41,141 bases of DNA from a bacterium. GTDB lineage: Bacteria > Patescibacteriota > Minisyncoccia > UBA6257 > GWB1-50-10. The stretch is from positions 1-41,141 of the forward strand of contig JAJYXV010000009.1 of the NCBI GenBank assembly GCA_021801565.1, read 5' to 3'. A program made the position numbers. Of the stretch, positions 21,001-24,000 are shown one piece after another; the stretch's first letter is position 1, and every line of letters begins with the position of its first letter.

Positions 21001-24000
21001 TTTGACTTTGGATGTTCCGGCTTTTCTTCAATATCTTTTATATACATATGTTCATCGGTAATAGCGACGCCAAATTTTCTCGGATCTTCCACCTTATAAA
21101 CCGCGATCGCAAGATCATGGGTGAGGAGATCGTCAACTGTTTTTTTGTCAATGAGATCATCGGCATAGAAAAGACAAAATGATTCATTTTTATTGAGATA
21201 GGGTTCGCATAATTTAACTGCATGAAATGTGCCTAATTTTTCCGGTTGCGTAATATAAGTAATTTTTCGTCCTAAATATTCACTTCCTATCGCTTCTTTT
21301 ATTTTATTTCCAAGATATCCAACAACAAGAATAATTTCATTAACACGCGACGGAAATTTTTCTATAAGATGGTGGAGTAGTGAAGTTCCATTAACAGTCA
21401 CCAGTGGTTTTGGTATGGTGAGCGTGAGTGGGCGCATGCGCACCCCCTCTCCTGCGGCTAATATAACTGCTTTCATATGATTTTTATTTGCGCGGGCGAT
21501 GGGACTTGAACCCACGACCTTCTGCGTGACAGGCAGACGCTCTAACCAACTGAGCTACGCCCGCAAACCTTTTCTAGTTTATCAATATTTCTCTTTTTTG
21601 CAATTTGGATTAATTTTTACTAAATCCGTAGCGGAGGTGGGAATTGAACCCACGACCTAACGCTTATGAAGCGCTCGCTCTAACCACTGAGCTACTCCGC
21701 CATAAGGAGGAATATATCCTCCCTTTTTATTTTTTTATGTACAAGTCTTCTATTTTTTTCTGTTTGTTTTCGTTGAATTCATTTCGTTCTTTTTCGCTCA
21801 TCTTATTCCACTTTTCAGCATCTACGTGTTCGTGTATGATTTTTACAACTTTTTTTCCGATCTTTCCAGGAAGGAAATTTCTTTTCGTTGATTTTATTTC
21901 ATTTAAATTTTCTTCACCGCTTTCTTTTTCTTTGTCTATGGAATCAATAAATTCGTTTGTATCTTCGTTGTTTGAATATTGCTCATCCAGTTCATCGCGT
22001 GAGATATGGTATTCTTTTTTTGCTTCGTCGTAGACTCTTGGGAATTCTTTCTTTTTTTCCTCGAAACCATTTAGGAGGTCGGTATCTTCTGTTTGATTTT
22101 CTTCTCGAATTTCATCAAGCTCTATTTTTCCTTCTTCTCCTCGGTCTGTTTGTTCTTTTATAACAACATGTGGTTCTTCAAACGGATTTTTTTCTTTTGG
22201 CATATACATAGCAGATTTTATTTACATTCGACTTTTAAACCCGGTTTTATCAAATTAGAATTAATTTTTTGTTGCGGGGGTTGGAATTGAACCAACTACC
22301 TCAAGGTTATGAGCCTTGCGAGCAACCGTTACTCTTCCCCGCGGAACCATAATAACAGAAAAATGCTCCACTGTGCAAGTAAAACCTCGATTTTATGACG
22401 AGGGAGGGCTCAATATATGAAATTTGATTCTCCAGAATAAATTATGTATACTGTCTCTACAATGAAAAAAGTCGCAAAGAAATTTTTTAGATTTTTCTTT
22501 ACCTAGCTCATACTGGGGGTTCTTTTCTCATAGTGTCTACATGTGAACCCCTTGTATCAAGAGGGTTTTTATTTGTATGGAATTCTACGAAAATTTATCA
22601 AAGCTTCGTTTACATATAACTTCGCCTGATGAAGCACGGTTGCGCGAGGAGCTCAAAAAAAAGGACGATGCGGACAGTATGCGTTTAACACGCTTTCTTG
22701 CACTTTCTGACCAAACACGTATTCAGGGACATCCGATATGTGAGGTTGCAACGCGTATTTTCGGGATACCTGAATTTCAAAATTTTGACCATATCCAAGT
22801 TCCTGAAATTGTTCGCGCAGATCAAAGTTTTGATTTATTTAATTTTCCACCCGACCATCCAGCGCGAAGTGCATCGGACACATATTTTGTGAATAGTGAA
22901 TATATTCTCCGAACGCATACGACTATTATGTGGTATTACTACGTGAAATCGAAAGAGATACAAGAGAGGATAAAAAATAACCAACCACTTGGCTCTCTTT
23001 CGTATGGAAAAGTATACCGCAAAGATGAAATTGATCGCTTTCACTTGAATGTCTTCCATCAGATTGATGGGTGGTATTTACACCCCACAAGTGACAAGAT
23101 AGTTCCCTTTGATGAGTTGAAAAATATTCTTGGGAAAATTGCGAGGGCAATTTTTGGGGAAGACACTAAATTTCGTTTCAATGAAGACACATTTCCTTAC
23201 ACGGATCCGAGTGTTGAGATGGAAATTGAAAGAAATGGACAGTGGATTGAGGTATTGGGAGGAGGAATGGTGCGTCCTGTCGTGCTTCAAAAACTTGGTG
23301 TTGATCCAAATCAATACACTGGATGGGCATTTGGATTTGGTGCAGAACGGCTTGCCATTGTGAGTATGGAGCTTCCTGATATTCGCCTACTTCGTTCGGA
23401 AGATCCTCGAGTGAAAAAACAATTGATGCTTGGAAATAAATACAAAGAAGTAAGTAAGTTTCCTCCGATTACGAGAGATATTTCATTTGTGGTAGGAAAA
23501 GATTTTTTTGTAAATCAATATTATGATGTGATACGAGATATCGGAGGCGATCTTATTGAGGAAGTGCAATTACTTGATAAATATGAAGACGAGAAAAAAT
23601 TCGGGCCGAATCGCGTAAGTTATACATTTCGTGCGGTGTATCGATCGAATGATCGTACACTTGTGTCCGAAGAGGTTGATAAGCTTCAAGATAAACTTTA
23701 CAAGGAAACCGTATCTCAATTTGGAGCGGAATTAAGGTAAACGAAAGACTAAAGACCCAAGGCTGAAGACAAAAGATAAAAAAAGAGAAGATTAAAAACA
23801 GGGAAAAAATTTTCTTGCAGTTTTCTCTTTTTTTTGCGAAAGTTAGAGATGTATTGCCCCGATAGTTTCCGCCCCAGGCGGACCAGCCTTGGGCTGGCAA
23901 TATCTGATGGAATATTCTTATTTTATCGTAGTGTGATGGTCAGCGTAGATTTAAGTACTATGCCCCGATAGTTCAATGGATAGAACAGGGCTCTTCTAAG

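Follow-up and report, generated by a model that had tools for sequence, protein, structure and literature searches.

Does the short phenylalanine-rich reading frame that lies immediately before a phenylalanyl-tRNA synthetase (PheRS) gene serve as a leader-peptide attenuator in a bacterium of the Patescibacteria, or candidate phyla radiation (CPR)? The locus that raises this question is pheS on contig JAJYXV010000009.1 (assembly GCA_021801565.1). The window that we analysed is the whole stretch of 41,141 nt; coordinates follow its numbering on the forward strand, and the leader elements and pheS all lie on the plus strand. From the sequence we conclude that the leader is probably a PheM-like transcription attenuator, near-leaderless and dependent on ribosome stalling, whose target is a PheRS of the single-chain, mitochondrial type. 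Stalling of the ribosome had been put forward in a preliminary description of this DNA, and the conservation of the leader, its geometry, its rarity within the genome, the placement of its promoter, the use of intrinsic terminators by the organism and a second, independent-looking leader family all lend support to that reading.

Layout of the leader and its target gene

A promoter consensus scan identified a promoter-like site, TTGATT-17-TATACT, at 22424-22452, followed by an upstream open reading frame (uORF) with a run of Phe codons, two alternative RNA pairings and the pheS gene. The features are as follows.

22424..22429, plus strand: -35-like box TTGATT (promoter consensus scan)
22447..22452, plus strand: -10 box TATACT (promoter consensus scan), with a transcription start predicted near 22459
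22462..22506, plus strand: leader uORF, MKKVAKKFFRFFFT and stop, 14 sense codons, with ATG at 22462-22464 and TAG at 22504-22506
22483..22500, plus strand: putative regulatory codon block Phe-Phe-Arg-Phe-Phe-Phe (codons 8-13), with five Phe
22502..22517, plus strand: predicted segment 1:2 hairpin, CCTAG / CTGGG, spanning the stop codon and followed by a U-rich run; weak, at -5.8 kcal/mol
22515..22522, plus strand: segment 2, the 5' strand of the predicted antiterminator, GGGGGTTC, complementary to GAACCCC at 22545-22551
22545..22552, plus strand: segment 3, predicted to pair with segment 2 in the antiterminator or with segment 4 in the terminator
22545..22568, plus strand: predicted terminator hairpin (segments 3:4), GAACCCCTTG-TAT-CAAG(A)GGGTTT, with 9-10 pairs and a single bulged A, at -9.8 kcal/mol
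22566..22576, plus strand: U-tract TTTTTATTTGT, 3' of the hairpin and abutting the pheS ATG (22577)
22577..23740, plus strand: pheS, single-chain PheRS of 387 aa, tRNA-synt_2d core plus FDX-ACB

Exactly 70 nt separate the uORF stop codon from the pheS ATG. The preliminary description had placed the uORF at this distance and had proposed two mutually exclusive pairings downstream of it; the former was recovered base for base, and the latter were found as the helix of 22515-22522 with 22545-22551 and the hairpin at 22545-22568. The minimum free energy (MFE) fold of 22440-22600 includes the 22515-22522 / 22545-22552 helix, and the hairpin was flagged as terminator-like by the consensus scan. Of the features by which classical leader attenuators are recognized, those that can be read from sequence are present, namely a uORF with cognate codons, a predicted terminator, an exclusive antiterminator pairing and an appropriate spacing between the stop codon and segment 2. 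A further weak hairpin within the uORF, AAAGAAA/UUUCUUU, was given no role; it is broken in three of the related sequences described below (L114-L116).

Between the terminator and pheS the consensus scan detected no promoter, and inspection by eye gave no acceptable -10 box. With the U-tract extending to the pheS ATG, there is no room for a promoter between terminator and gene, and pheS would be expressed only through read-through of the hairpin. The gene upstream of the leader encodes tRNA-Met and is located on the opposite strand (22271-22343), with a promoter-like site of its own at 22377-22349. Because this gene is divergent, no co-directional gene needs the plus-strand hairpin as a terminator.

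In the mechanism that we propose, transcription would begin approximately 3 nt before the uORF AUG, from the conserved -35/-10 promoter, and a ribosome would load on the leaderless or near-leaderless 5' end and read the 14 codons, five of which, within codons 8-13, specify Phe. When Phe-tRNA(Phe) is plentiful, the ribosome would reach the stop codon and cover segment 1 together with the first bases of segment 2. With segment 2 covered, segments 3 and 4 would come together, and transcription would end at the resulting hairpin and U-tract, just short of the pheS AUG. A shortage of charged tRNA(Phe), as might arise where PheRS activity is too low, would make the ribosome stall at the Phe codons, the last of which is codon 13 of 14, and it would then mask segment 1 only. 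Segment 2 would be free to pair with segment 3, so that the terminator is blocked and RNA polymerase enters pheS. A feedback loop would result, in which low PheRS activity leads to less Phe-tRNA(Phe), to stalling and to more PheRS mRNA. The ribosome footprint size behind this spacing argument is textbook knowledge. The segment 1:2 hairpin may correspond to the pause, 1:2 or anti-antiterminator element of the classical model.

The proposal requires that the uORF be translated, and it has no Shine-Dalgarno (SD) sequence. Across the genome, an SD-like motif was found before 121 of 734 crude starts (16.5%), compared with 692 of 5000 random coding windows (13.8%); the source organism mostly does not use SD sequences. 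A short-motif search of the assembly did not recover the 3' end of the 16S rRNA, with the anti-SD. We also recorded the position of -10-like hexamers in the 402 genes that have an upstream spacer of at least 60 nt. Such hexamers lie 6, 7, 8 and 9 nt before the start in 23, 20, 19 and 10 genes, respectively, a total of 72 genes out of 402, where the other 50 positions predict about 23. Such a sharp peak at 6-9 nt is characteristic of mRNAs with no leader or almost none, and suggests that many genes are expressed in this way. Because the uORF lacks an SD sequence and begins 9 nt past a -10 box, it is probably translated from a leaderless or near-leaderless mRNA as well. As for termination, the density of hairpin-plus-T sites is 4.75 per kb in the 80 nt that follow genes and 0.48-0.59 per kb within them, a roughly tenfold enrichment which indicates that the organism uses intrinsic termination. 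No RNA run covering 22300-23800 turned up, and no part of the pheS locus was covered by three metatranscriptome contig sets from the same study; these results are uninformative on its expression.

Pfam searches of 22577-23740 located the class II PheS catalytic core at residues 46-282 (E = 1.7e-58) and an FDX-ACB domain at residues 293-387 (E = 9e-24). Fusion of these two domains is the architecture of mitochondrial PheRS. The source genome comprises 742 kb with 38% G+C and is 98.7% complete; no match to the B5 domain of PheT was obtained across it, and this domain was matched in 14/14 control genomes. In addition, pheS at 22577-23740 is the sole strong PF01409 match of the genome. The putative target of the leader is the cell's only recognizable PheRS, encoded by one gene and not by a pheST operon. 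The earlier claim that the leader controls PheRS is supported as far as the cognate gene is concerned and has to be amended with respect to the enzyme, which is single-chain. Many relatives within the same order possess a classical pheS and pheT pair, unlike the source genome with its single-chain PheRS. A gene for tRNA-Phe(GAA) is found 2.6 kb downstream of pheS.

Conservation in relatives and rarity in the genome

The preliminary description had suggested looking for Phe-rich uORFs upstream of pheS in other genomes. We collected pheS loci from 41 related genomes (20 loci with usable upstream DNA), 80 metagenome contigs and 80 GTDB species genomes (77 with at least 100 nt upstream). Overall, about 250 partly overlapping loci were scanned, and these yielded nine distinct leaders of the type seen in the window (family A) and three distinct leaders of a second type (family B). 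The family A leader was present in 9/9 distinct sequences in which PheS is 79-100% identical to that of the window (G000; L002, L003 and L004, whose genomes are those of L111-L113; L031, L032, L114, L115 and L116).

In all nine family A sequences the -35 element is kept as TTGAxx, with a spacer of 16-17 nt that varies in sequence, and the -10 box TAYACT has a fixed distance of 9 nt to the uORF ATG; the 7th nt after this box is always a purine. The 14-codon uORF occurs in the same frame in 9/9, with no indels or frame breaks over 45 nt, and encodes the peptides MKKVA[K/G/E]KFFRFFF[T/I], MKKVAEKFFRPFFT and MQKGAKKFFRFFFT. Apart from the F11P change in L114, the amino acids of the Phe block are invariant. 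There are several synonymous changes in the uORF, which is closed by TAG in five sequences, by TAA in three and by TGA in one. Identity at the synonymous third positions of pheS is only 49-70% within the genus, as opposed to 89-100% for the 45-nt uORF; synonymous sites in pheS are near saturation among these relatives. Sequence and length diverge both 5' of the -35 box and in the spacers that separate the conserved blocks. Moreover, the module is retained where the neighbouring tRNA gene is inverted (L004) or absent (L116), which argues against conservation by way of the divergent tRNA promoter.

The alternative pairings are likewise found throughout family A. A terminator hairpin can be formed in all nine sequences, from base pairs that are partly different, and a T-rich run is present 3' of the hairpin in 9/9 (and in 3/3 members of family B). 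The conformation with hairpin and U-tract has predicted energies of -6.0 to -13.9 kcal/mol, and the antiterminator, formed by a G-run and the 5' arm of the hairpin, -8.8 to -17.7 kcal/mol; the antiterminator is the stronger of the two in all nine. The G-run, which constitutes segment 2, begins 6-10 nt past the uORF stop codon in 9/9. For the segment 1:2 hairpin, energies in the six sequences at genus level range from -3.1 to -5.8 kcal/mol. With regard to individual pairs, GTTT replaces GTTC in L115 with retention of a G-U pair, and the terminators of L114 and L115 are closed by U-A and C-G, where the genus has C-G, U-A and U-A beside the bulged A. In L116 the alternative pairing is in a shifted register, GAGGGG:CCCCTC. 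The evidence for the switch comes from folds of each sequence; MAFFT alignments misregister the G-runs of L004, L114, L115 and L116. We also held the terminator arm fixed and shuffled the upstream spacer with preservation of dinucleotides, 500 times per sequence. The energy of the antiterminator duplex was matched in 47, 43, 16, 1, 15, 16, 1, 44 and 6 of 500 shuffles for the nine sequences.

Family B was found by a relaxed scan, which yielded L105, from a metagenome, and L173, and by a subsequent scan of 41 relatives of the L173 genome, which added L217. The three loci (L105, L173/L205 and L217) belong to other Patescibacteria with the same type of pheS, and PheS of L105 and L173 is approximately 60% identical to that of the window. 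Their uORFs, MLASLIKTFTNFFFTH..AGF or MLANAIKNFTNFFFSPVV, conform to the pattern MLA..FTNFFF.., and a -10 box (TATAAT or TATTAT) lies exactly 6 nt before the uORF ATG in 3/3. A GC hairpin with a U-tract lies downstream, and the end of the uORF overlaps with an alternative pairing, at -12.7 to -15.5 kcal/mol. The features shared by the two families are confined to the FFF(T/S) core, a predicted leaderless start and the topology of the switch, and the families may be homologous or of separate origin. The family B cassette has pheS on one side and a gene encoding a stand-alone tRNA-binding domain protein on the other; in the nearest relatives, L206-L208, both of these genes occur with no Phe-rich uORF between them. 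By eye, the tRNA-binding domain protein that precedes single-chain pheS (in L105, L173/L205, L206-L208, L215, L217 and L220) resembles the N-terminal domain of PheT. In L105 and L173, an insert of about 190 nt separates the terminator from pheS. This insert has terminal inverted repeats, CTGTCATTCC ... GGAATGACAG, and looks like a small mobile element.

Several other frames were considered and rejected. A scan of a further 45 loci (23 with single-chain and 22 with classical pheS) gave one candidate, MTTRITSKTFCFAFFVGPTHTF in L238, which overlaps an upstream tRNA terminator and is missing in three genus-mates. The MFFHFFF uORF of L076-L078, L080 and L082 corresponds to the antisense strand of a GIY-YIG-like gene remnant; in these loci such a gene, or a deleted remnant of it, was seen by eye just 5' of pheS in antisense orientation. 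Weak Phe-containing uORFs in L009, L015, L060, L140/L209, L232, L057, L162, L180 and L188 are not accompanied by a comparable architecture.

The rarity of the arrangement was assessed in the source genome, using crude gene calls (735 ORFs) and ATG-initiated uORFs of 6-35 codons in the 447 upstream regions of at least 40 nt. In these regions, 25 uORFs have at least four identical residues in a six-residue window. Five of the 25 are of the Phe type, and a density of 5/6 Phe is reached only before pheS, the other four having 4 Phe. Spurious Phe-rich frames are frequent in this genome, as judged from an ORF listing. We then considered 13 other aminoacyl-tRNA synthetase (aaRS) genes located with Pfam, a list that is incomplete, since not every family model among those for Glu, Arg, Cys/Met, Ala and His had a search of its own. 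None of the 13 is preceded by a uORF enriched in its own amino acid, and their upstream regions gave no T-box at E<=1 and no Rfam match above noise.

Known attenuators and competing explanations

Escherichia coli pheM, as read from NC_000913, and the present leader both comprise 14 codons, five of them for Phe, with an FRFFF core; in both, the leader ORF is followed by an antiterminator and then a terminator with a U-tract, the target is a Phe-tRNA synthetase and feedback would operate via the charging of tRNA(Phe). They differ in that the E. coli terminator is located about 210 nt before pheS, whereas the present one abuts the start codon. In addition, the present uORF is SD-less and near-leaderless, precedes a single-chain PheRS instead of pheS-pheT and belongs to another phylum. 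No sequence or structure homology was detectable with the RF01859 (Phe_leader) model: cmscan gave no match at E<=10 in 21500-23000 (gathering threshold 55 bits), and the E. coli pheM leader, used as a positive control, scores 75 bits. The designation PheM-like in the preliminary description is accordingly apt for the working design and does not extend to membership of this RNA family.

T-box riboswitches, which serve aaRS genes in Firmicutes, would accomplish the same task as the present leader, in that synthetase is raised at low tRNA charging by a terminator/antiterminator switch. A T-box senses by direct binding of tRNA, whereas the present leader would sense via the ribosome. A leader of about 115 nt is too short for the specifier and T-box architecture, and RF00230 gave no match at E<=10 in 21500-23000 with cmscan.

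Leaders of a comparable kind have been predicted before other aaRS genes. One source names pheST among the classical attenuators in gamma-proteobacteria, and leader attenuators have been predicted there for trpS and leuS in Streptomyces (PMC1262725). Another describes the cysS uORFC-8-2 motif as a predicted cognate leader attenuator in Rhodobacterales (PMC8632094). As far as these sources go, the cysS, trpS and leuS leaders resemble ours in having a short uORF with cognate codons, an intrinsic terminator and an aaRS gene; they differ in amino acid, phylum and sequence, and leaderless initiation is not mentioned in the available parts of either (PMC8632094, PMC1262725). A precedent for leaderless leaders is provided by the poly-Cys small open reading frames of mycobacteria, which form the first cistron and in which stalling on a run of one codon is reported to control the downstream genes (bioRxiv 10.1101/834739). 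Those frames are described there as unmasking a ribosome-binding site, with cysteine metabolism as the target, whereas the present leader has a hairpin with a conserved U-tract, indicative of termination of transcription, and an aaRS target.

A number of observations weigh against an attenuator. The nine family A sequences are close kin from one narrow clade and not independent, and no leader was seen in about 240 other pheS loci scanned, including those of close relatives of family B. The 9-nt gap between the -10 box and the uORF is at the upper edge of the leaderless peak, where 10 genes were counted against about 6 expected. Variable sites in the uORF fall at approximately five third, three first and five second codon positions, with no clear excess at the third, and the Phe block is near-invariant in nucleotides, so that constraint at the level of RNA is conceivable. 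The MFE fold energy of 22440-22600 is unexceptional (z = -0.70; 48 of 200 shuffles fold as well), the terminator stems within the genus are modest (-5.6 to -10.8 kcal/mol), and the shuffle support for the antiterminator is weak in those sequences where 43-47 of 500 shuffles matched it. Finally, we know of no demonstration that transcription and translation are coupled in CPR bacteria.

The main rival to transcription attenuation is translational attenuation, in which the position of the ribosome on the uORF would set access to the pheS start and the hairpin with its U-tract would not terminate. The modest stems would suit such a device, as would the location of the hairpin, which stops about 10 nt short of the pheS AUG and has the weak SD-like motifs AGAGGG/AAGGG in its 3' arm, AGAGGG being 11-12 nt from the ATG. 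However, masking of a ribosome-binding site would not need the T-rich tract that follows the hairpin in 12/12 leaders, and the hairpins of L105 and L173 are too far from pheS, at about 190 nt, to mask its start codon. Folding leaves the pheS start codon and its flanks unpaired in both conformations. Given also that this genome hardly uses SD sequences and that the hairpin-plus-T design is enriched at its gene ends, we regard translational attenuation as unlikely. It is less probable still that the leader is recognized purely as RNA or by a protein, for instance by PheRS or by uncharged tRNA(Phe), with the reading frame being incidental. The near-invariance of the Phe block in nucleotides, down to the choice of TTT or TTC, would suit such recognition, and the lack of clear codon-position periodicity among variable sites and of an SD sequence before the uORF points the same way. 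Yet no T-box or other Rfam family matched at E<=10, and the length, start and stop of the ORF are kept in 9/9 sequences while TAG, TAA and TGA interchange. The fixed distance of 9 nt from the -10 box fits the leaderless genes of the organism, family B has little in common with family A other than the topology of the switch and a uORF, predicted to be leaderless, that carries a run of Phe, and Phe codons before the gene for the Phe enzyme are a prediction of the ribosome model.

The least probable of the explanations is that the locus is not a regulator at all, and consists of a small conserved peptide gene, or of a chance ORF in T-rich DNA close to a promoter, followed by a leaky terminator, with conservation that merely reflects short evolutionary distance or the tRNA-Met promoter. 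Spurious Phe-rich ORFs are indeed common in this AT-rich DNA, as illustrated by MFFHFFF in L076-L082 and by L238, and family A is confined to one narrow clade. Short distance is difficult to reconcile with neutral sites that approach saturation and with flanking spacers that have diverged, and the tRNA promoter with a module that persists when the tRNA gene is inverted or lost. A chance ORF is at odds with the finding that the pheS upstream region is the sole one of its kind among 447 and that a second family exists. Transcription attenuation by a stalled ribosome remains the explanation that we prefer.

Other leaders and biological meaning

Three additional observations concern leaders elsewhere in the genome. 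A repeated leader of about 110-145 nt, with the ends CCCGTT... / ...AACGGG, has its 3' end right at the ATG of the gene that follows (rplB-, rpsD- and ychF-like genes, among others). It occurs in the window at about 11430-11647 (both strands) and at no fewer than 14 places in G000, examples being C3:42289, C8:13669, C8:25560, C8:122718, C12:20605 and C14:12108. The 197-nt leader of a TrpRS-like gene (G000 C12, about 130541-130740, minus strand) contains the long-range inverted repeat CCCCGTTAGAG ... CTCTAACGGGG; it gave no Rfam match and is probably a copy or relative of the CCCGTT/AACGGG element. In the leader of a gene for a 902-aa class I aaRS (G000 C12, about 11968-12270, minus strand), the short frame MKKYDPSKIEKKW mimics the N-terminus of the enzyme, MKKYDFIKIEKHW, which suggests that this frame is a duplicated or displaced 5' end of the gene.

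The pheS leader represents a known type of regulator in a phylum that is new for it, as far as literature searches show. Our searches found no report linking leader-peptide attenuation to Patescibacteria/CPR, although subscription literature and supplements may hold some; they found nothing on monomeric PheRS in CPR and nothing relevant on leaderless genes in Patescibacteria. Two families of Phe leader, MKKVAKKFFRFFFT and MLA..FTNFFF.., both laid out as promoter, uORF, switch and terminator, precede single-chain, mitochondrial-type PheRS in separate lineages, and on balance we lean, with some reserve, towards the view that SD-less, leaderless leader-peptide attenuators are a recurrent device of the Patescibacteria. 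Given the patchy spread of the leaders, which are missing from close relatives, such cassettes may be quickly gained and lost, or may even be mobile. If the device is indeed recurrent, these minimal cells would couple transcription to translation and gauge the charging of tRNA(Phe) directly.

The Patescibacteria are uncultivated organisms with tiny genomes and few recognizable regulators. A conserved attenuator would mean that at least one essential translation gene is under feedback control, in a manner that needs a ribosome close behind RNA polymerase. The leader may therefore offer a testable handle on transcription-translation coupling, on leaderless initiation and on the response to Phe-tRNA shortage in an auxotroph that is unable to make Phe. 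Furthermore, the solution embodied in pheM, a 14-codon peptide with an FRFFF core, would appear to have arisen again without detectable homology, before a structurally different PheRS.

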